DNA of 64,000 bases, from NCBI RefSeq assembly GCF_963506605.1, contig NC_083291.1, positions 24,428,001-24,492,000 on the forward strand. Reading direction: 5' to 3'. This document shows positions 3,357 to 55,438 of this stretch, piece after piece. The DNA is from Zootoca vivipara. Taxonomy: Eukaryota. The notes below the pieces were generated by a model. The model was not told the DNA's origin. It ran no database searches and saw only the letters and a program-made list of their open reading frames with translations. How positions within the stretch are numbered: the stretch's first letter is position 1; each line of letters begins with the position of its first letter. The position numbers and the translations under genes are program-made.

Positions 3357-4763
3357 ACATACACAAATACAGTCATTTGATCAGCTGAGGCACTGGGGCA
3401 ATGCTTATCTGCTGCCCACACAACTCCTGCTCCCTCCCCGCAGCTTCCAGGTTTAGAGCTGAAGGGGATTGTTTTGATCTTCTGCAGAGGTGCAATGTGA
3501 TTGTTGTTGCTGTTGCTGTTTGTTTATCACATTTATATTCCATCTTGCTTATCTTCCAAGACTCTCAAAGTGGTGTGCAATGGTTCTCCTCCCCATTTCA
3601 TCCTCACAACAACCCTGTGACTGGCTCAAGGTTACCTAATGAGCTTCATGGCTGAGTGGGGATTCAAATCTTGCTCTCCCAGGCCCTAGTCCAACATTCT
3701 ACTCTACACTGGTTCTTCAGAGTGCTTGAGACACTGTAAATGGTTTCATATTATCATTGGAACAGCTCCATTAACTAGGCTAGAGAGGAGAGGTGGGGAT
3801 TTGCCCAAGGCCCACCCTGCTTCAGAACTGGTAGAGTAGAGTGGGATTTGGGTCATCACTCTCCCATTTAAAAGTCTGATCCACACAATCTGTGACACAT
3901 TGATAGACGTGGGTTGAAGATGGGGTTGCATTCACTCTGAAGATAAGCCATGACCACCCAAATCTTTCTGCATCATCATAGCTTCCTTGTCTCTGTGTAT
4001 AATAACTTTAAGTATGCTAAGATAACAGTTTGATTTAGATGGGTATCATTTGTGGTGGTGGTTTGGAAATATGTAGTATTGTGGCTTATGGAAAGTGTCT
4101 GCACTTCTGAAAAGCACGCCGCCAAGAATGATTTGTTAGTAGGGAAGGAGAGAGAAACAAGAATTCACTTTCAGTTGAGCCAACTAGGATCGTTTTGTTG
4201 TTACTGCTGTAATTCACGCTCTTTGTAAATTTTGGAGTGCACCTAAACTGGGAGGCTGTGTTGTTGTTTATATACATATATACTTGAGTACAGATTCCAG
4301 TATTCTTGTACTTCCTTTCAAACCCAGCCATTGTATCTGTTAAAATCTGGCTTGAGTCAGACTGAGACTCTTTGCCAAAATTCCTATCCAAAGGAGCCAA
4401 GTTCCTACTTTTGTTTTTTTGTATAACTTCTTGGTAATATAATTTTACAGTCACAGCAGTTTACAGTTTCATTCCTACTGTGATATGTCTTATAGCTCTA
4501 TTGGCAGGATTGGGAACTAACACGAGAGCTACCCACAATGACAGTTGAGAATGTAAAAATAAATTGGGGGGGGGGGTTACAGCTTTGTCTAATTGTCAAT
4601 CTGTTTATGTCAAAATACTCCTGCCACTGCTTCATAAGCAGCGCTTTACTAGTTGTTGATAAAATTCCGTTGTGATCCACTGCCCTTCCCTCTCATAGTG
4701 CCTCAGAAAGAATTACAGTGCCAAAGGCAAGTCAGTGGGGCTGGTAGCTAAGCGGTAGAGCCA

Positions 4764-20245: not shown

Positions 20246-22267
20246 GTAACTGAATTAAATTAGTTTCCTTCAGGTATTAAAAGTGCCAATCTTATGCAAT
20301 TGAAAGTCTGGTCAGCTGAAGTTTTATAGCAAAACAACTTATTTGTCTCAAGAGGATGTTGCTCTGTATTAAAAAGGTGTACTTTTGTGTCAGTTGTTTT
20401 GATTTTTCTATTGGCACCACCCCATGCAATGATGGGTGATAACTTGTAGACAGAGAATTTCTTTTCTTCCTCTCGCAAAGTACAGCTTCTCTCATTTGGT
20501 TCCTTTTGCCTTGCAAAGTATGAAAAAGTGTTGTGTGTGGGAATTTTTGGTTTCTGTTATAAATATTCCCTTTGATTCAGAAAAGGTTTGGGTCTCCTTT
20601 CCTTCACTCCCCAAACTCACTTTGGGCCTACCTCAAACACTGAGATTACATGGGTATGTGGTTGCAATGCAGAGTTGTGGGTAAAATGTGATAAGTTGTT
20701 TGTGTAAGCTGCTTCCTATTATGTAGATTTTAACTATACTGATGCTACTCTTCAAATATGGCAAATGTGTGGTTAGCATAAACTGTTGGTGCGGAGCTCT
20801 TTTCAGATTATAAATTAATGCACACTTCTCAGATTATAGGACTAATTTCCATGGCTTCCTGAGCTTCACAGGAAGGAGAAAACAACAACAAACTATTGAA
20901 TAAGTTTGTCATTGGAGAAAATTGTATGCCTCTATAAGTTCGTCGCAACTTGGAAGCAGTAGAGAGGATAAACTGCATAGGTGTCTCCCTTCCCACACCC
21001 TGGACCTAGGACGAGAAGGTTCTCTCACCAGCTCTTCTGGCTACTTCAGGCTATGACAGATGAAATGGTCTTGTTTTTAGTCACCTTGGATTATCTGTAC
21101 AGCAAATTCTGAAGTTGAGAAGCGTCTCACTTAGAGCTGTAAACATTATTCTGTGCATCTCTTCCACTCAGCCATTCAAGGGAGACGAAAAATGTACTTG
21201 CTTCTGAGCTAAGGACTTTAAGAGGATGTGGTAGCTACCTTTCCCCACCGCCTACAATTCAAATTCTTCTGATGAATAAGGAAGGTGACAGTTCTCTCAG
21301 GTTGGAGCAGGGGTAGAGGTTCTAGAAGCTATGATATCACTTTGAGTACTGTGGGTTCAAGGAATCTCATGACAGAACTGAAAGAGGGTTCAGATCTTAG
21401 CTTAGTGATGAATAGGGTGACTTTGTGGGGAGGGATTGCTTTCTCTGCTTTAGTTGCCCAGTTGTAAAATGAGGGAAATAATGCATAAAGCTGGCTGCGT
21501 GGAGAGAGTGTGTGTGTGTGTGCCATGGAAAGCACATCTGAATAATCACGTGCAATATAAGTACTTAAAAGAAATTACTATTTGAGAAGTGATGCTTTTG
21601 AGTTTGCACTTTTTGTGCTTTGTTTTTAAGTACTGTATGCTAATATGCATTATTTTACCTTTTGCTTTTTAAAATTTCATCTTTGGTTTTAAGAGCAGTT
21701 GAAGTAGGATTTGTCCTCCATTAGTGTTGGTGGCATTTTGTTGTCTTTGGGGAGGGTGCTAAATATAGTTGTTCTCACATCACCTTTTGTGCGGAAACTG
21801 GCCACTGTTAGACTAAGTTTTAAAAAGAAGAATGAATAGGAGGTACAAGTCCTGGTAATCTCTTTATAAATGCTTTTTCATATCAGTATGTAATCCATTT
21901 GTTGTAAACCAGAGTCTAGAATATAAAATACATGCCAAAAGAGTTTTGAATAACATCAGTCCTCATATTTCCACTTAAATTTATTGATTTTTCTTTCACT
22001 TGGACACTGGTGGTGGTGCTGTGTGTGCATAGATATTCACTGCTGATTCCATAGGAAAGATTATGTGATTGCACCCACCCATGTGATTTGGTCATTAGAT
22101 AGTCACCCAGCTGCTAATGGATAAATAGATCTCTTATGGTTAGGAAGACATATAGATATGATCTGAGACCAGCAAAAAGCCAGAGTTAGGCTTTTAATGT
22201 GTGGCCTTAAGAGAACATATGTCTGAAGCATCACTGATACTTCTCAGAATCTTTTTAAGAGTACCGG

Positions 22268-22618
22268 TGTTGTGTATTGAGTCAAAGGATTTTATATCTG
22301 TATTATTATTGTCTGTATTTGCATTAGGATAAAGTAACTGCCTTTTGGTTCCAGAGGGTACAGCTACTATTGGTTCATTTAAGCTGCTGTATTTGGATCC
22401 TCTGTCTTATTGGTTTCCTCCAAAAGGCAGCACTGTGATTGCTTGATATTGTTCCCTCCAAAATGTATCCCTTCCTAGCTAGTCCCCTGTCCCTATAAAT
22501 GTAGCTTTCCTCTCCTCAGTCTTCAGTCTTGTTCACTTTAATAAAGAGCTGTTACTAGAGAACTGTCTCCAGCATGTTATGTCAAGAGAGCTGAAATCAC
22601 AAACCCCACGTCACAACA
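22268..22618 (+). repeat. 5' LTR
   Basis: TGTTGTG...CACAACA. TATAAA at 22494, AATAAA at 22540. No difference from the 3' LTR seen by eye. Confidence 0.97.
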
Positions 22619-22620
22619 AC

Positions 22621-22638
22621 TGGCGACGAGGATGGGAT
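22621..22638 (+). other. Primer-binding site for tRNA-Ser(GCT)
   Basis: TGGCGACGAGGATGGGAT is complementary to the tRNA-Ser(GCT) 3' end ATCCCATCCTCGTCG-CCA and starts 2 nt after the LTR. Confidence 0.85.
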
Positions 22639-22745
22639 CCGGAATGCTGAGGAGCGGTTAAACACAGCCCTGCCTCAGAGTCCGGATAGCAACTGAGAAC
22701 AAGACTCACTGGCCAGCTGAGAAGACGACCCTGCCCGCTAGGACA

Positions 22746-23495
22746 ATGGAGAGTCCAAGGGTATTGGAGCCCTTCCAGCCATCAGAGCCCCACACGTGGG
22801 AAGACTACGTCGAACGCTTCGAGTTCTTTGCAGTGGCTCAAGGGATCACCGATGCCAGCAAAAGAAGGGCCACATTCCTGAGCTACTGTGGGCCCGAGAC
22901 CTTCAAGCTGGCCAAGGCATTGCTTGCTCCAGCGAAGCTGAGTGAAACATCTCTCAAAGATATTCTTGCCTGCCTAACGAGCCACTTGGCGCCTACTGAG
23001 ACCAAGATAGCCCGGCGGATGGAGTTCCATAAGAGGCAGCAGCGTGCTGGGGAGTCTGTATCCACATTTCTGGCTGAGCTCCGGAAGCTCGCTCAGCACT
23101 GCGGCTTCCAAAATCTGGAAGAGACTCTCCTGGATCGGTTTATTGGGGGTCTGAGCAGCAAGAAAGCCAGAAGACGCATCGTGGCTAAAGAAGAGGTTAC
23201 CCTTGCTTCAGCCTTGAAGGAGGCCACCGCCACGGAGAATTATGAAAGAGAGGAGCTTGATGCCAGTCGCAAGGCCACTAAGCCACAGATAGAAGTTGCA
23301 CATGCCATGGATGAGCTAGAGGCTACTCCGAGCCAGAGCCCAGTCCGTGGGGTCGAGTCGGTGCGTCAGGCCTGCACAGTGCACAAAGATCGCCGAGGCA
23401 GTTGCCCAGGTTGTGGCGGAAACCATGAGCGGAAGAGTTGTCGTTTCAGGGTTGCTCTTGAATTACGGTTTGGCATTTTATCTGGGTGGACATAA
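22746..23495 (+). CDS. gag: Gag, C-terminally truncated
   Basis: WEDYVERFEFF...FHKRQQRAGESVSTFLAELRKLAQHCGF...DRFIGG, plus one zinc knuckle CPGCGGNHERKSC. The stop codon lies inside the inverted insert. Confidence 0.9.
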   Translation: MESPRVLEPFQPSEPHTWEDYVERFEFFAVAQGITDASKRRATFLSYCGPETFKLAKALLAPAKLSETSLKDILACLTSHLAPTETKIARRMEFHKRQQRAGESVSTFLAELRKLAQHCGFQNLEETLLDRFIGGLSSKKARRRIVAKEEVTLASALKEATATENYEREELDASRKATKPQIEVAHAMDELEATPSQSPVRGVESVRQACTVHKDRRGSCPGCGGNHERKSCRFRVALELRFGILSGWT

Positions 23496-26229
23496 TCCAG
23501 CACCGTTACCAGTCTTCTACCTAAGAGCAGCTCGGCTGGCGACTTGCCATAAATTGGTCAAGCAGGGAGTTCTCTCACCCGTGGACTCTGCTAAGTGGGA
23601 GACTCCAATCGTCACACCCCTTAAAGCAAATGGGGAAGTCAGGATCTGTGCAGATTACAAATGTACTATCAATAAGGCACTCAGGGGAAACTCATACCCC
23701 ATTCCGGTCGTATCACATCTGTTGGCTAAACTGGCTGGGGGCAAGGTGTTTGCCAAAATTGACCTGGCACAAGCTTACCAACAGCTGCCAGTAACCCCAC
23801 AATCAGCGGAAGCACAGACTATTGTCACACATAAAGGGGCGTTCAGAGTTAACAGATTACAGTTCGGAGTTTGTGTGGCCCCAGGGATTTTTCAAGGGCT
23901 CATGGAACGCCTGTTAAGAGGTCTGCCGGGGGTCTTGCCATTTTTTGATGACGTTTTGATTGCTGGAAAAGACCCACAGGAACTGGTTGCGCGTGTCCGT
24001 GCAGTGTTGCTCAAGTTCAAGGAGGTGGGGTTGCAGCTGAAAAAGGAAAAATGCAGTTTTGGGGTGCCAACGGTGGATTTCTTGGGGTTTAAAATTGATG
24101 CATCAGGCATCCACCCCACAGATGCTAAGATTAAGGCCATCATCGAGGCACCACGACCACAGAACAAGACGGAGTTGCAGTCATTCCTGGGACTTATTAA
24201 CTTTTATCATTCGTTCTTACCCCAGAAAGCTTCGGTAGCTGAACCATTACATAGACTATTGCAGAAAAAGAAAGTGTGGCGATGGGGGCGGGAGCAGCAG
24301 AAGGCTTTTGACTCCTTGCGAGGAATGCTGAGTAGCAGGAGCGTCCTTGCTCATTATGATGAGTCAAAGCCGCTGGTCCTGGCATGTGATGCCTCTCAAT
24401 ACGGTCTGGGGGCTGTGCTGAGTCATAGGGAACCGGATGGGTCGGAAAAGCCCATCTCTTTCTATTCCCGTACGTTGTCGCCCACGGAGCGCAACTATGC
24501 TCAAATTGATAAAGAGTCACTGGCTATTGTGTCCGGAATCAAAAGGTTCTATGATTATTTGTACGGTCGCCATTTCTCCATTGAAACGGACCACAAACCA
24601 CTGTTAGGGTTGTTCAACCCAAACAAACAAACGCCACAAATTCTCTCCCCCAGAATGTTGCGTTGGTCAATATTCCTGAATGGGTTCCAGTACACCTTGA
24701 CCCATGTGCCGGGGAAACAGTTGTGCCATGCTGATGCGCTGAGTCGATTGCCCCTTCCTGGCGGGAGCAATGAGGATCCTGCTCCGGCGGAGCACATTAT
24801 GATGCTAGAAACACTTCCGGGGGCTCCTGTAACAGCTACGGATATAGCTGAGAAAACGAGGAAAGATGCTGTTCTCTCCCGTGTGCTCACTTGGGTGGGG
24901 AGGGGGTGGCCAGGTGGTCCGCATGAAGAAAAATTCAGGCCTTATGCGACAAGGCAGCACGAATTGTCCATGCATAAGGGTTGTCTCCTATGGGGAGATA
25001 GGGTGATCATCCCAGCACCACTGAGAAACAGGGTTCTTGAGACGCTTCACATGGGACACCCGGGAATGGTCAGGATGAAGTCACTAGCCCGATGTTATGT
25101 GTGGTGGCCTGGAATGGACCAGAACATAGAACAATGGGTACGAACATGCAAGGCATGCCAAGAGGTGCGGCCAGAAGTGGCCAGAGCACCAGTCCACTGG
25201 TGGGAGCAGTCCAGGACTCCCTGGAGCCGGCTGCACATAGATTTTGCTGGGCCATTCCAAGGGAAGGTCTTTTTGGTTATCGTTGATGCATATTCCAAAT
25301 GGTTAGAAGTGGCGATGGTCCCTAGCATGGCATCAGCTGCCGTAATCAAGGTGTTGAGGCAGCTGTTTGCTACCCACGGGTTACCTGAGACCATTGTATC
25401 AGATAATGGGGCAGCTTTTGTATCCCAAGAATTCAGGGCATTCTTGGCTGATAACTTTATAAGAGGGGTCACATCCGCGCCCTTTCACCCATCCTCCAAT
25501 GGGCAGGCTGAGCGCATGGTAAGAACAGCCAAAGAATCCATTGCGCGCTTAATGGAGGGTAACTGGTCGGCTCGCATTGCGCGAATGTTATTTTTGCAGC
25601 ATGCGACGCCGTGTACTGCGACGGGCAAGTCGCCAGCCGAGCTGCTCTTAGGTAGAAGACTGGTAACGGTGCTGGATTATGTCCACCCAGATAAAATGCC
25701 AAACCGTAATTCAAGAGCAACCCCCCAGGCTGAGACTGACACAACAAGGTATCTCGCCCCTGAAGATCTGGTCTGGGTGAGGAACTATTCACGAGGTCCG
25801 CGGTGGGTGGCTGGTGTGATCACCCGGGCTAGTGGACCTGTGTCTTATTATGTGACCTTGGAAAATGGGCAAGTTTGGAAGAGACATATAGATCAGCTGA
25901 GGCGCCGGGCGCTCAGCAGGGAGGAGTCAGATAATTCATCCCTGGCTAATGACGCACAGCTGCGAGACCAGAGTGAAGATGGCCCAGAGGTGCAGTCACC
26001 AGGGGCTTCAGCAAATGAACCAGGGTCTGCTAGTCCTCATGATGACGAGGTACAGGTCGGGGACCCTGAGATGTCTGGGACTCCATCTGTTCCTGATGAA
26101 ACCCCTATAGCAGCCCCTCCACCACAGGTAACACCCAATCCAGAACCTGCAACACCTGTTGTCAGGAGATCAGGTAGAAGTTGTAGGACCCCACAGTACC
26201 TGAGGGATTACGTCTGCTGTGCTCACTAG
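23425..26229 (+). CDS. pol: Pol (RT, RNase H, integrase) lacking protease
   Basis: RT motifs VRICADYK, KIDL.QAYQQ, RLQFG, FFDD. RNase H motifs CDAS, IDKE, TDHKPL, ADALSR. Integrase HHCC (LHMGH...CKAC) and DDE (HIDF, SDNG, AERMV). Native homology starts near 23549; first in-frame ATG at 23425. Confidence 0.92.
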   Translation: MSGRVVVSGLLLNYGLAFYLGGHNPAPLPVFYLRAARLATCHKLVKQGVLSPVDSAKWETPIVTPLKANGEVRICADYKCTINKALRGNSYPIPVVSHLLAKLAGGKVFAKIDLAQAYQQLPVTPQSAEAQTIVTHKGAFRVNRLQFGVCVAPGIFQGLMERLLRGLPGVLPFFDDVLIAGKDPQELVARVRAVLLKFKEVGLQLKKEKCSFGVPTVDFLGFKIDASGIHPTDAKIKAIIEAPRPQNKTELQSFLGLINFYHSFLPQKASVAEPLHRLLQKKKVWRWGREQQKAFDSLRGMLSSRSVLAHYDESKPLVLACDASQYGLGAVLSHREPDGSEKPISFYSRTLSPTERNYAQIDKESLAIVSGIKRFYDYLYGRHFSIETDHKPLLGLFNPNKQTPQILSPRMLRWSIFLNGFQYTLTHVPGKQLCHADALSRLPLPGGSNEDPAPAEHIMMLETLPGAPVTATDIAEKTRKDAVLSRVLTWVGRGWPGGPHEEKFRPYATRQHELSMHKGCLLWGDRVIIPAPLRNRVLETLHMGHPGMVRMKSLARCYVWWPGMDQNIEQWVRTCKACQEVRPEVARAPVHWWEQSRTPWSRLHIDFAGPFQGKVFLVIVDAYSKWLEVAMVPSMASAAVIKVLRQLFATHGLPETIVSDNGAAFVSQEFRAFLADNFIRGVTSAPFHPSSNGQAERMVRTAKESIARLMEGNWSARIARMLFLQHATPCTATGKSPAELLLGRRLVTVLDYVHPDKMPNRNSRATPQAETDTTRYLAPEDLVWVRNYSRGPRWVAGVITRASGPVSYYVTLENGQVWKRHIDQLRRRALSREESDNSSLANDAQLRDQSEDGPEVQSPGASANEPGSASPHDDEVQVGDPEMSGTPSVPDETPIAAPPPQVTPNPEPATPVVRRSGRSCRTPQYLRDYVCCAH

Positions 26230-26240
26230 GGGGGGAGGGG
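26228..26240 (+). other. Polypurine tract
   Basis: An uninterrupted 13-nt A/G tract directly before the 3' LTR, overlapping the pol stop codon. Confidence 0.9.
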
Positions 26241-26591
26241 TGTTGTGTATTGAGTCAAAGGATTTTATATCTGTATTATTATTGTCTGTATTTGCATTAG
26301 GATAAAGTAACTGCCTTTTGGTTCCAGAGGGTACAGCTACTATTGGTTCATTTAAGCTGCTGTATTTGGATCCTCTGTCTTATTGGTTTCCTCCAAAAGG
26401 CAGCACTGTGATTGCTTGATATTGTTCCCTCCAAAATGTATCCCTTCCTAGCTAGTCCCCTGTCCCTATAAATGTAGCTTTCCTCTCCTCAGTCTTCAGT
26501 CTTGTTCACTTTAATAAAGAGCTGTTACTAGAGAACTGTCTCCAGCATGTTATGTCAAGAGAGCTGAAATCACAAACCCCACGTCACAACA
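26241..26591 (+). repeat. 3' LTR
   Basis: 351 bp, apparently identical to 22268-22618. Confidence 0.97.
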
Positions 26592-29500
26592 ACCACTGAT
26601 TCTTCAAGACTGTGTGCATGTTTTCTAGCTGAAATCTGCTTGGGCTTTAGGAGCCAGTATATCTGAAATTGTCTGCTGTTATAAAAAAAGAGGTTTGAAA
26701 AACTGCTGCTTTAAGTGCATCAAGAAAAACAGGTGACAGAAAAACTTCACTTCTGAGTATTGCCTTCAGTTTCTTAGTGTGATTGTGACTTCACAAGTAA
26801 CATTTTTAATGTGCTATTTTAAGCATTTTCCAGTTTGCAGCTCCCTTCTCACTTATTTTGACTAACCTTTGTTTTAAATCCAGTCATTAGTTATTCTCTA
26901 TCTGTGGCATCAACAACATAAACTTTCCTCCACAGAGTGTTTTCACTGAAAATAGTGTCTGCAGCTGATGAAATGTGCCCACCCCCACCCTACATCTGAT
27001 CAATGATTCTCTTTGATTTGTGCTTCACTTCCTGGATTCTCCACAGGAAAGTGTGTTTCCTGTTAAAGAGCTGCTTCCCTATCAGTTTATTTAATTAGAA
27101 TTTACCATATTTCAACATCTTGCAGTTCACTAGCAACATCCCTTCAGTTGCCTTACCCATACGAATTGTTATGTACTGACAGGTATTATGCTGGATAAAC
27201 TAGAGCTGATTAAAGGCAATGGGTATAGGGCTGTAGGGCTGCTCTGGAACACAGGGGGAAATGATGGTGATGATTATTTTAGACTGGTGGATTTATAAAG
27301 TTAGGTGAATTTATCTGAATATATTTCTAGATTTAGAAAGCTCTGCAGCATATTCTACAGATCATACATAGGCAGAGCCTAGAAAGGCACAAATATAACT
27401 GCATTTTAAAGGCAATACAATAACATTAGAATCTGATTTATCCTGCTTTCTTCCTCCCATTACTCTGCTAAAGAACTGCTCTGCAGAATGTTCTTACTCC
27501 TGTGAAGTAAAAAAACAACATACAAATATTCTTTCTTTTTAGTTTCTCTTCATTTTTTCCTTATTTTGTGGTGTCTACCAACTTTGCCCTTTAATATTTT
27601 AAGTTCTGATTTTTATAGCCACCTCTTCATCCCTACCCTTTCTATTTCCATAACAACTCCAAAGATATTCTATTGTGGCACCTTGATCTGAGCATGCTCC
27701 AGTGAGTTTCATTGTTGTACCCTTACTCTAATTCTATGCTTTTCCCCAAAAGTTTTTACTTTTCAGTTGATATTTTAGAGCCTCTTATTAGCATGGAACT
27801 GATTGAAGGATTATTAATATTGATTTCTTGGTAAAAGGTGCCTAGTTTTAATTATGATATTACTTGGTACCTATTTCTCTCAAGGATACCAGGTAGTTTT
27901 GTGGCTCTGTTGTTACTTTATCAAAGTCAACCAAACTGTCCATTTTAATAAAATAGCACTATCTGGAAATTGAAATGTGTCACTACCTAAATATTTTCCA
28001 CACTTAAAATAGTTTACTTTGATTCAGGAAGGAGCACAGTCCATATGATTTAAGAAATTCTATAATCCAGCTTCCAGTAGTGGTAGTTTTTCTTTTCTTT
28101 TCTTGCATTCTTCTGATGTATGATTCCTAAAACTACAGGAGGTGTTGAAGAAGAACTTTTCTAAAGTGGATTTTGTGTTTTTGTTAATGTACCCCTTCAA
28201 CGCTTGCAAAGGGAGGGGAGACTGCTTGGGAGTCTGTGACAAAAGGCTTGGGAAATGAGCATCTCTCCTAACAACTGTAGCTTCCAGCACTGTGTATATT
28301 CACTTGACTTGAGAGTTCTGACATTTCAGCACAGTATAGAACTGAACTATTATTGCTCCATAAAATAACTTGGAACCTGTAAATGAAAATACTGTTGTAT
28401 GTATCTTTTTAAAATTAAATGACATTTCTGTGCCAGAGAGGCAGGTTTCATTGCTTTCTAAAAGGCAAAGAAGTTGCAAAAATGCTGTTTAGTAATGTTC
28501 CCCGGAGGTAAGACCAGATAGGAAATAATTTTATAGGGCTAGTGAAACTGCATTTTGTGTATTTTTTACATCAGGCAGAAGAATATTCAAAATGTGAAGT
28601 AAGTGTATATCACATATAAAAAAGAAATACTGTCAGTGGTTGCATTATTATGCTGTAACCTACACTGCATTTTATTTTAAAACATTTCTCAGCTGCTCTA
28701 GTGTAACACATACACTACATTTTATTTTAAAACATTTCTCAGCTGCTGTTTTGAAGCTTAAGGTGGTTTACACAATTAAAACAAAAATGAAAATACAGAA
28801 TAGACAGCAACTGGGGATGGGGGCAGGGGGGAGAGCAAGCCAAAACCCAAACAGAATAGATGTGCTTTACAACCCTTCCTAAAGGCTAATATGGAGTGGG
28901 AGCCACACCTCTTGGGAGAGATCATGCCCATAGCATTGGGGAAAATGTATATTGATTGCTTCTAGCTGCAACAGTTTGTATTTCATGTGTAGAAGGAAGA
29001 CAAAGCAGGGTCCGAGTAAATGACTGAAGATGGCACGGAGAACTATCTAGACATAGAATCCAGAACAGACAAAATCAGTGTGCCTTTAATTCATTTAGTT
29101 CACAAAATGTTTTCCAGGAAACTCTGTGATTCTTTAGAAGCTCCTAAATGAGATCAGAAATGATGAGCTGACTTAGGGGATCATTTGCCTGCCCACCATC
29201 AGTCGTGTGTGTGTGTGTGTGTTATGCCAGGCATTCAGTTGATCTTTGATGGTGCTGAGGCCTGAAAGATATGTCAGCTGAGCATGCAACCTAGAACATG
29301 CCTTAGCAGGAAACTCATTGTGTAGAGTGGACTCTGAAAGTAAAGCGTTCAAAAACCACAGGCACAACTTTACAGCTGAAAAATTATACAAAAACCTATT
29401 CCTAGACATTCTTCACTGTTCCCCAACCCCAATGTATATTATCATCTTTTTATGTTTTTCCATGTCTCTCCATGCTTCTTGCTACATTCCTTTTGGAGCT

Positions 29501-33585: not shown

Positions 33586-36500
33586 CCGTGTTTCTCATAT
33601 TTTAAGGCATCCCCAAAAAATAAGCCATGACAGGATTTCTAAGGGTTGGTGAAAAATAAGACATACCCCGAAAATAAGCCATGTCGTGTAGCCCCGACCG
33701 AGCGAGAGGCGAAGGCGCGGGACCCAGCAGGAGCTCCCTGCCTGCTTCCCCGAGCCGTCGCGCATCGGGGGACAGAGCCGAAGATCGGAGGGCGCTCCTT
33801 GCTGGGCTTGACAAGCCCGGCAAACAGCGCCCGCCGATCTTCGGACCTGTGCTGTGTGACAGGCAGGGGTGGGGGGAAGCGGAGATCGTTCTCCGCTCTC
33901 CCCCCACCCCCGCCTGTCACCAAAGATCGGCGGGCGCTCCTTGCTGGGCTTGACAAGCCCGGCAAACAGCGCCCGCCGATCTTCGGACCTGTCCTGTGTG
34001 ACAGGCGGGGGTGGGGGGGGAAGCGGAGATCGTTCTCCGCTCTCCCCCCACCCCCGCCTGTCACCAAAGATCGGCGGGCGCTGTTTGCTGGGCTTGACAA
34101 GCCCGGCAAACAGCGCCCGCCGATCTTCGGACCTGTCCTGTGTGACAGGCGGGGGTGGGGGGGAAGCGGAGATCGTTCTCCGCTCTCCCCCCACCCCCGC
34201 CTGTCACCAAAGATCGGCGGGCACTGTTTGCTGGGCTTGACAAGCCCGGCAAACAGCGCCCGCCGATCTTCGGACCTGTCCTGTGTGACAGGTGGGGGTG
34301 GGGGGGGGAAGCGGAGATCGTTCTCTGCTCTCCGCCCACCCCCGCCTGTCACCGAAGATCGGCGGGCGCTCCTAGCTGGGCTTGACAAGCCCGGCAAACA
34401 GCGCCCGCCGATCTTCGGCCCTGTGCTGTGTGACAGGCGGGGGTGGGCGAGAAGCGGAGATCGTTCTCCGCTCTCCCCCCACCCCCGCCTGTCACCAAAG
34501 ATCGGCGGGCGCTCCTTGCTGGGCTTGACAAGCCCGGCAAACAGCGCCCGCCGACCTGTGCTGTGTGACAGGCGGGGGTGGGGGAGAAGCGGAGATCGTT
34601 CTCCGCTCTCCGCCCACCCCCGCCTGTCACCAAAGATCGGCGGGCGCTCCTTGCTGGGCTTGACAAGCCCGGCAAACAGCACCCGCCGACCTGTGCTGTG
34701 TGACAGGCGGGGGTGGGGGAGAAGCGGAGATCGTTCTCCGCTCTCCCCCCACCCCCGCCTGTCACCAAAGATCGGCGGGCACTGTTTGCTGGGCTTGACA
34801 AGCCCGGCAAACAGCGCCCGCCGATCTTCGGACCTGTCCTGTGTGACAGGTGGGGGTGGGGGGGGAAGCGGAGATCGTTCTCTGCTCTCCGCCCACCCCC
34901 GCCTGTCACCGAAGATCGGCGGGCGCTCCTAGCTGGGCTTGACAAGCCCGGCAAACAGCGCCCGCCGATCTTCGGCCCTGTGCTGTGTGACAGGCGGGGG
35001 TGGGCGAGAAGCGGAGATCGTTCTCCGCTCTCCCCCCACCCCCGCCTGTCACCAAAGATCGGCGGGCGCTCCTTGCTGGGCTTGACAAGCCCGGCAAACA
35101 GCGCCCGCCGACCTGTGCTGTGTGACAGGCGGGGGTGGGGGAGAAGCGGAGATCGTTCTCCGCTCTCCGCCCACCCCCGCCTGTCACCAAAGATCGGCGG
35201 GCGCTCCTTGCTGGGCTTGACAAGCCCGGCAAACAGCACCCGCCGACCTGTGCTGTGTGACAGGCGGGGGTGGGGGGGGAAGCGGAGATCGTTCTCTGCT
35301 CTCCGCCCACCCCCGCCTGTCACCGAAGATCGGCGGGCGCTCCTAGCTGGGCTTGACAAGCCCGGCAAACAGCGCCCGCCGATCTTCGGCCCTGTGCTGT
35401 GTGACAGGCGGGGGTGGGCGAGAAGCGGAGATCGTTCTCCGCTCTCCCCCCACCCCCGCCTGTCACCAAAGATCGGCGGGCGCTCCTTGCTGGGCTTGAC
35501 AAGCCCGGCAAACAGCGCCCGCCGATCTTCGGACCTGTCCTGTGTGACAGGCGGGGGTGGGGGGGAAGCGGAGATCGTGCTCCGCTCTCCCCCCACCCCC
35601 GCCTGTCACCAAAGATCGGCGGGCGCTCCTTGCTGGGCTTGACAAGCCCGGCAAACAGCGCCCGCCGATCTTCGGACCTGTCCTGTGTGACAGGCGGGGG
35701 TGGGGGGGGAAGCGGAGATCGTTCTCCGCTCTCCCCCCACCCCCGCCTGTCACCAAAGATCGGCGGGCGCTCCTTGCTGGGCTTGACAAGCCCGGCAAAC
35801 AGCGCCCGCCGATCTTCGGACCTGTCCTGTGTGACAGGCGGGGGTGGGGGGGAAGCGGAGATCGTTCTCCGCTCTCCCCCCACCCCCGCCTGTCACCAAA
35901 GATCGGCGGGCGCTCCTAGCTGGGCTTGACAAGCCCGGCAAACAGCGCCCGCCGACCTGTGCTGTGTGACAGGCGGGGGTGGGGGGGAAGCGGAGATCGT
36001 TCTCCGCTCTCCGCCCACCCCCGCCTGTCACCGAAGATCGGCGGGCGCTGTTTGCTGGGCTTGACAAGCCCGGCAAACAGCGCCTGCCGATCTTCGGACC
36101 TGTCCTGTGTGACAGGCGGGGGTGGGGGGGAAGCGGAGATCGTTCTCCGCTCTCCCCCCACCCCCGCCTGTCACCAAAGATCGGCGGGCGCTCCTTGCTG
36201 GGCTTGACAAGCCCGGCAAACAGCGCCCGCCGATCTTCGGACCTGTCCTGTGTGACAGGGGGGGTGGGGGGGAAGCGGAGATCGTGCTCCGCTCTCCCCC
36301 CACCCCCGCCTGTCACCAAAGATCGGCGGGCGCTGTTTGCTGGGCTTGACAAGCCCGGCAAACAGCGCCCGCCGATCTTCGGCCCTGTGCTGTGTGACAG
36401 GCGGGGGTGGGGGAGAAGCGGAGATCGTTCTCCGCTCTCCCCCCATCCCCGCCTGTCACCGAAGATCGGCGGGCGCTCCTTGCTGGGCTTGACAAGCCCG

Positions 36501-36619
36501 GCAAACAGCGCCCGCGTGCACTTTATTAAAAAATAAGACATCCCTCAAAAATAAGCCATGTCGTGTTTTTTTGAAGAAAAAATTAATATAAGACATGACT
36601 TATAATATGAGAAACACGG
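33586..36619. mobile_element. TA-flanked MITE (CCGTGTTTCTCATAT ends; pogo/Tigger-like) carrying a satellite
   Basis: TA|CCGTGTTTCTCATATT...AATATGAGAAACACGG|TA, subterminal AAAATAAGCC/AAAATAAGAC motifs. Same ends as the 235-bp copy at 49478. Confidence 0.92.
33778..36514. repeat. GC-rich tandem repeat, ~143-bp unit (135-bp variant), about 19-20 copies
   Basis: GGGCTTGACAAGCCC recurs 20 times from 33804 to about 36485 at 135-145 bp spacing. Each unit is made of two hairpins. Confidence 0.97.
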
Positions 36620-54517: not shown

Positions 54518-55438
54518 CCGTATATACTGGCGTATTAGACGGCTTTTGAACCCAGGAATTTTTTTTCAAAAGTTCGGGGCCCGTCTTATACGCCGGGTCC
54601 AAGAATCTGCAGTCACCGCATACGGTGGGGGGAGCTCAAAAACGGCCGCATCCCCACTGTATGCAGTGACCCTATGAACGCAAAGAAGCGCGCTCGTGAG
54701 GGGGCTGCTCCCCGCCAGGGAGAATGGCTCCCTCATGGCTTTGTGACCTGGATCAGCGCAGAGATACAGTTTTGTGTATTTCATTGGTGTCAAGCTGCTG
54801 CCTCTTCTCTTTTTGTCAGCGCAAAGCAAAGGGATCTCTCTGTCTCTCTCTCTCTCTCTCCGCTCTCTCTTTCACTGCTGCTCAGCGTCTTTCGCTGGCT
54901 GTGTGAGCCTCCGATGTCTCTGCCCCTCTATCGCTATCCTCTCTATGGTTTCTTTCCCCCCCTTTTGCTCGATGTCTCTGCCTCCCTCTCCCTCTCCCTG
55001 GCTTCTATTCCCCTTTTGCTCACTGAGCCAGCCTCGTTGTCTCTCTCTCCGCTCTCTCTTTCACTGCTGCTCAGCGTCTTTCGCTGGCTGTGTGAGCCTC
55101 CGATGTCTCTGCCCCTCTATCGCTATCCTCTCTATGGTTTCTTTCCCCCCCTTTTGCTCGATGTCTCTGCCTCCCTCTCCCTCTCCCTCCTTTTGATCGA
55201 TGTCTCTGCTTCTCTATCTCTCCTCTCTCTGGCTTCTTTCCCCCTCTCAATAACTAAGCAAGCAAGCAAACAAACAAACCACCATTTCCCCGGCTGCAGA
55301 CTTGAGTGCTGGAGAAGACAGCCTCCCCTCCCCTCCCCGCCAAAAAAGGGCTGGAGTACATCCCAAATTCTATATTTTAATTTGAAAAGTAAGGGGTCGT
55401 CTTATACGCCCAGTCACCTTATACGCCAGCATATACGG
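54518..55438. mobile_element. TA-flanked MITE (CCGTATAT ends) with internal pyrimidine-rich duplication
   Basis: TA|CCGTATATACTGGCGTAT...ATACGCCAGCATATACGG|TA, subterminal CGTCTTATACG motifs. A ~150-bp block is duplicated with 189-bp period. Confidence 0.88.

Follow-up and report, generated by a model that had tools for sequence, protein, structure and literature searches.

Template switching by reverse transcriptase gives deletions with insertions (PMC3187697), inversions occur in defective HIV proviruses (PMC9278108), and in one HIV study proviruses with inversions made up 6% of 531 (PMC6235535). The locus described here, a retrotransposon copy in a window of 64,000 nt (the whole stretch of Zootoca vivipara DNA that was analysed), is like these retroviral cases (PMC3187697, PMC6235535, PMC9278108) in having an internal deletion filled by rearranged element sequence, intact long terminal repeats (LTRs) and a single defective copy. 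It differs from them in being a vertebrate-type Ty3/Gypsy element in the germline and in having kept the source of the inserted sequence, which gives a perfect hairpin. Copying of nascent minus-strand DNA, which we infer for this locus, lies outside what the available text of those three accounts describes, and no paper on it was found in a literature search that was thin on subscription papers.

Inverted repeats edited by ADAR, such as inverted Alu pairs and the palindromes of C. elegans (PMC7084138), likewise place two inverted arms in one transcript with clustered A>G changes on both, whereas here both arms lie within one LTR element; retrotransposons are described in that source as normally lacking such inverted repeats. 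Mu killer (PMC3440606) and composite insertions of Ac/Ds (10.1101/2020.01.07.897926) share with our locus an inverted duplication of transposon coding sequence and read-through transcription (which here depends on sequencing run X1 being RNA), but both concern DNA transposons of plants, their inverted duplications are much longer, and siRNAs and silencing are demonstrated for them only. MMB-TI (PMC8421209) is alike as an inverted templated patch at a deletion, present as a germline variant, but here the template is 2 kb off and not within 100 bp, and there is homology at one junction only. The element itself resembles the Mag lineage of Ty3/Gypsy (PMC3286476) in that its family members are about 4.9 kb long, have short LTRs and a primer of the tRNA-Ser type, show target-site duplications (TSDs) that are mostly of 5 nt and often contain a single ORF, a likeness by features, and a Ser primer is also listed outside Mag in the table of that paper. 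Element and hairpin may both belong to known kinds; literature listings covering few subscription papers turned up no account of an inversion that is edited, self-derived and contained in a single LTR element, which is weak evidence that the exact combination has gone unreported.

Structure of the element and its family

Self-comparison showed that positions 23449-23548 are the exact reverse complement of 25624-25723, as had been claimed in an earlier reading of this DNA (the sequence-only reading), giving two arms of 100 nt with 2,075 nt between them and a match that breaks off sharply at both ends without any extension. The first arm is the inverted (minus-strand) insert and the second, on the plus strand in the 3' part of the integrase region, is its source. 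Both lie in a Ty3/Gypsy copy of 4,324 nt (22268-26591) with the following features, all on the plus strand: direct 5' and 3' LTRs (22268-22618 and 26241-26591), each of 351 nt, running from TG to CA and identical to one another; a primer-binding site (PBS, 22621-22638) whose 18 nt are the complement of the host tRNA-Ser(GCT) 3' end once CCA is added; a polypurine tract (PPT, 26226-26240) preceding the 3' LTR; and Pfam domains in the order reverse transcriptase (RT), RNase H and integrase. The best PDB match of a sibling ORF is Ty3 Gag-Pol (E 1e-88). Priming by tRNA-Ser or -Leu is a mark of the Mag lineage, not exclusive to it, and the PBS together with the size suggests that this element is Mag-like. 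The target-site pentamers on the plus strand (22263-22267 on the left and 26592-26596 on the right) match at 3/5 positions, the last two bases of the left one (GG) being the same as the two bases before the 3' LTR. One sibling, L018, has the same GG/AC mismatch, and a perfect 5-nt TSD is found in 14/18 siblings.

A 301-nt query gave 1,243 candidate loci in the 1.44 Gb genome (48 contigs), and the insert was spanned by only one of the 40 scored, which is this copy. Twenty other family loci were fetched, chosen as close relatives and not at random, of which 18 have two LTRs; L031 and L033, with only one LTR in the fetched stretch, are left out of the 18-copy counts. These 18 siblings are mostly 4,916-4,921 nt in length, 12 of them carry a single uninterrupted frame of 1,374-1,386 codons and 10 have identical LTRs, and since identical LTRs, uninterrupted frames and perfect TSDs are common among them, the family is taken to be young. 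None of the 20 relatives has an inverted self-match inside the element sequence (the only two inverted matches lay at the ends of a small insert, in L019, and in flanking DNA, in L031), so that the arm pair described here is not a product of chance.

Comparison with family members also allowed the deletion to be sized, as the sequence-only reading had proposed: 9/11 siblings have 693 nt between the positions of the two junctions, and the other two have 692 and 700 nt. The first 3 nt of the insert (GGG) are also the sibling letters, so that the inserted length is 97-100 nt and 690-693 nt were lost. The source 100 nt were found letter-for-letter in 14/18 siblings, and so, while the deletion was indeed patched by antisense family sequence, what had been called the element's own sequence is that of the family, and the template is not tied to this copy.

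Origin of the insert

The reading that we favour, with somewhat better than even confidence, is that this is one defective copy in which 693 nt were exchanged for a 100-nt inverted piece of integrase, probably by a double template switch in reverse transcription, and that its RNA is likely to be an edited hairpin; an effect on the family is not part of this claim. Minus-strand synthesis would have proceeded leftwards to 23549 and there, without homology, switched to minus-strand cDNA at 25624 that had been made earlier and was single-stranded; 100 nt would have been copied before the strand re-annealed on the gag RNA by way of a 7/8 match, and the rearranged product would have been integrated once. 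At the gag-side junction (23449-23456, plus strand) the insert has 3 exact bases and 7/8 bases overall in common with the siblings, for which a simulation gave a chance of about 3e-4 per junction, under a criterion set after the match had been seen. The mismatched base of these 8 is the source letter, which suggests that the strand grew leftwards: for a strand extending rightwards from gag no more than the 3 exact bases would have been of use, while one extending leftwards would have carried the 8-mer from the source at its 3' end, with all 8 nt available for annealing. Copying of minus-strand cDNA also predicts both that the source should lie 3' of the break and that the insert should be inverted. 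The junction polarity thus fits leftward minus-strand synthesis, though the direction and the position of the source are by themselves weak discriminators against DNA repair, and the RT-side junction (23548/23549), which has 0 bases in common with the source, counts against the RT view. Template switching, which the sequence-only reading had named, is the likeliest origin by inference from this polarity, with repair as another possible one.

In the repair account, the same structure and edited hairpin would have come from the mending of a break after integration, by polymerase-theta end joining or microhomology-mediated fork switching, with this or any sibling copy as template. Hundreds of identical templates would have been at hand (438 candidates), inverted templated insertions persist as germline variants (PMC8421209), and this copy, with 8 near-private substitutions of which 2 are CpG transitions (other copies have 4-28), may be long resident. 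However, the reported events use microhomology-flanked templates within about 100 bp (the search in PMC8421209 extending only within 100 bp), whereas here 2 kb separate the template from the patch, and no base is shared at the point of departure; moreover, an intact allele at the site was not seen, in data poorly able to show one. We regard repair as possible but rather doubtful, and keep to the double template switch in what follows.

Coding consequences and propagation

The truncated gag (22746-23495, plus strand) keeps the first zinc knuckle and ends prematurely at a stop codon within the insert (23493-23495), just where the sequence-only reading had placed it. In sibling L015 three things are encoded in the missing stretch, namely the second zinc knuckle, the protease with its motif VDSGS and the RT start, and so the protease region was indeed replaced. 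The insert does come after the first zinc knuckle, but the second was also lost, and KLVKQG on its other side, which had been taken for the RT start, is not so, because the 31 residues ahead of it align with the Ty3 RT structure; at least 31 RT residues are gone and the remaining RT is cut. The remainder of pol (23549-26229, plus strand), comprising this N-terminally cut RT, RNase H and integrase, has no stop and belongs to a stop-to-stop frame of 969 codons (23320-26229) which passes through the insert; besides the three pol domains, Pfam gives a weak Retrotrans_gag match (E 1.9e-4) below the curated cut-off.

An ATG at 23425, said to be a new opening of the pol frame, does have a frame running through the insert, but is itself not new, being present in 11/11 siblings, with an A at -3; the novelty lies solely in its being connected in frame with pol. 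Because 14 ATGs lie upstream of it within the element, a useful protein from this ATG is unlikely, and the N-terminus of RT is missing in any case, so the earlier suggestion of a meaningful protease-less Pol did not hold up. It is likewise very unlikely that the copy founded or belongs to a non-autonomous subfamily that propagates, or that it supplies such a Pol, even though its LTRs, PBS and PPT are intact, its pol frame is open and the ATG has its A at -3: those upstream ATGs and the cut RT start stand against the protein, the duplex and its editing would be expected to hinder export and copying, and exact patterns across each junction gave one genome match per junction (1.44 Gb, one assembly), which means that no subfamily is found here by the junction search that the sequence-only reading had suggested. 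Two probes for private alleles also matched once, at this copy, and so no mother or sister copy was identified with them.

Likely transcription and editing of the hairpin

The two arms were, as claimed before, able to form a perfect 100-bp duplex, with a predicted energy of -209.7 kcal/mol compared to -30.5 and -23.7 for the arms alone. Evidence on its transcription comes from contigs of sequencing runs, of which X1 looks like an RNA run by its contig volume (135 million letters of contigs, compared to 1,281 for the DNA-like X3) and its family-to-flank depth ratio (about 5, compared to about 200 in X3). A contig of X1 with a depth of 37 spans the 5' flank into the LTR, the plus strand has an excess of T over A on both sides of the element (z 5.5 and 5.7), and about 48 kb upstream of it there is a CpG island. 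The copy is thus likely, on the footing that X1 is RNA, to be read through in the sense direction by a plus-strand host transcript. As to the host gene, there was no Pfam match at curated cut-offs for 150/153 window frames of at least 72 codons outside the element and a tandem array, nor for 30 frames made up of 29 from 35 crude exon candidates and one from the CpG island. An OAR-domain gene was considered for this upstream CpG-island frame and set aside, the Atlas leads being only weak (score 0.81).

In such a host plus-strand transcript through the copy, the arms would pair and leave the 2,075 nt between them as a loop, and the expected result of editing is a weaker duplex, not a supply of substrate for Dicer. 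Seven differences could be typed in X1, and 7/7 are A>G on plus-strand RNA. Those on the insert arm form a cluster (23492-23511, plus strand; at 23492, 23494, 23495, 23502, 23508 and 23511) in three low-depth contigs with different combinations, which is likely to reflect A-to-I editing; the one on the source arm is a T>C at 23479 on a contig with the source flank, equivalent to A>G at 25693. One of the A>G contigs passes the RT junction by 5 nt. The 8 listed X1 contigs carry 36 differences in all, of which only these 7 positions could be typed, most being too near contig ends, and the supporting depth of the edited contigs is 2-10. Whether a change appears as A>G or T>C tracks the flank, a pairing which is predicted by a plus-strand transcript with both arms edited. 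ADAR sites are depleted of a 5' G. Such a G precedes 0/7 of the edited sites, in a stretch (23479-23522) where only 1/10 of the As has one. Two of the A>G sites fall in the premature gag stop, and reading on past it would lengthen gag by no more than 19 codons, up to a further stop at 23550.

These findings make it likely that a plus-strand hairpin RNA from this locus is edited by ADAR, as seen in one RNA-like run. The sequence-only reading had looked to A-to-I edits on the 100 bp, and changes of the ADAR type are present on both arms in X1 but do not recur in X2 (one unedited contig) or X21 (two reads), so that there is no repeat in a second library. The 7 A>G letters have depth 0 in X2, X21 and X3 (for X3 with the limit that contigs drop rare variants), and four of them also have depth 0 in X5 and X7.

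Possible silencing of the family

Trans-silencing has precedents in maize, with long inverted duplications and siRNAs (PMC3440606; 10.1101/2020.01.07.897926), and a long hairpin in mouse gave RNAi mainly in oocytes, with little somatic siRNA and no transcriptional trans silencing (PMC3245926). Could the present copy be a killer allele of this kind, shutting down the family in trans through siRNAs made from the hairpin (in oocytes, for example), in the manner of Mu killer in maize? It is true that its perfect duplex comes from a coding region shared letter-for-letter by 14/18 siblings, that X1 (RNA-like) points to read-through from the flank, and that long hairpins give RNAi in mouse oocytes (PMC3245926). 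However, its stem is of 100 bp compared to the hairpin RNA of about 4 kb of Mu killer (PMC3440606), and mouse somatic cells process a long hairpin poorly and without trans silencing (PMC3245926). Moreover, editing was seen here, and editing in C. elegans keeps palindromes from Dicer (PMC7084138), though in mouse siRNA processing is not prevented by it. Family contigs are also abundant in X1 itself, at depths of 103-231 compared to 4-8 at the junctions, contig depth being a poor measure of expression with no matched non-carrier for comparison. Trans-silencing by the hairpin is unsupported, and we give a killer allele very little credence; just as improbable, in our judgement, is the fuller version in which a slip of RT made, in one step, a segregating Mu-killer-like allele of an active vertebrate LTR family, with germ-line siRNAs or piRNAs damping that family.

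Support for the junctions and apparent polymorphism of the insertion

For placement of contigs at the junctions a narrow stretch (23431-23566) was used, in which flank-only family contigs were not counted, and a junction was required to have 31 letters on both sides, a bar hardly reachable for short contigs inside a repeat. The left junction is crossed by one X1 contig at depth 4.2, whose 70 nt divide into 27 on the gag side and 43 within the insert, and the right junction by a ninth X1 contig, additional to the 8 that are listed, of depth 8.2 (from depth bins), running from about 23525 to past 23566 with about 24 and at least 18 letters on its two sides; neither reaches 31 letters on both sides. 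Branches would be expected at 23451 and 23549, and it is there that long X1 family contigs end and begin, respectively. The junctions were found in X1 only, that is in 1/4 runs on the narrow stretch and 1/7 runs overall. X3 gave no junction among 19 contigs, none of which reached a flank, and as contigs drop rare variants this blank is not absence. In X2, which is from the same study as X1 and may represent a non-carrier, there was a single unedited source-type contig and no junction, while X21 (raw RNA) gave 2 reads in about 6% of the run and so has no power; flank depth on the narrow stretch was 0 in X2, X3 and X21. The junctions are real, and the least probable reading of all, that of an assembly or polishing chimera whose round length of 100 is a read or gap size, is unlikely because, for all that the length is exactly 100 nt, that near-identical copies number in the hundreds and that the DNA-like X3 has no junction contig, X1 contigs cross both junctions at the assembly coordinates, long X1 family contigs stop at 23451 and start at 23549, and the true length is 97-100 through the ambiguity at the junction.

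Contigs of X5 and X7, from two other studies, leave the reference at 22265 and run on for 2,096 and 328 letters respectively, and from this departure point they appear to represent the empty site. Those of X1 and X3, both belonging to one study, reach 28 and 15 nt into the LTR. Taken with the identical LTRs of the copy, this makes the insertion young and apparently polymorphic.

Significance

The rearrangement is a tidy one-off, a probable double template switch that has left its junction polarity legible, and it shows how one LTR copy, once rearranged, can turn into a likely target of ADAR on its own. If the insertion is polymorphic, carriers and non-carriers could be compared for whether a short, self-derived hairpin starts silencing in the vertebrate germ line. 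Should the killer reading prove true, the locus would be a natural experiment on how a new retrotransposon begins to be silenced, a single stem being contested by ADAR and Dicer.

Other features of the family, the window and its surroundings

Internal deletions were also present in further copies of this Ty3/Gypsy family, namely in the sibling copy at locus L007 and in contigs of X3, a DNA-like sequencing run, where comparison with the window gave joints of internally deleted copies at 22564-23772, 23804-23972 and 22328-22404; none of the joints listed for 21600-24000 changed strand. The 3' LTR of another sibling, L019, carries a MITE-like insert of 90 nt (element positions 4588-4677). Its inverted ends are 24 nt long and it shows a duplication of 8 nt; a second copy of this insert lies in the flank of L019 itself.

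Elsewhere in the window, 33781-36515 is occupied by a GC-rich tandem array of 19.4 copies with a period of 143 nt and 93% matches. This array has approximately 77% similarity to its own reverse complement, and a CpG island lies immediately downstream of it, at about 37-38 kb. A perfect direct repeat of 149 nt occupies 54851-54999 and 55040-55188. A further CpG island, about 48 kb upstream on contig G000:C16 (L040:3364-3891), contains a + strand, Ala/Pro-rich frame which starts with ATG and closes at a splice-donor-like site, and which is a candidate first exon of the putative host gene.

Target-site duplication of the window copy

The TSD pentamers of the window copy (22263-22267, left; 26592-26596, right) are imperfect, and a 5-nt TSD mismatch of this one form, ending GG on the left versus AC on the right, was found in two of 19 copies, the other being L018. 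The GG closing the left pentamer is identical to the final two bases of the PPT, suggesting that the end dinucleotide of unprocessed cDNA may have been retained at gap repair.
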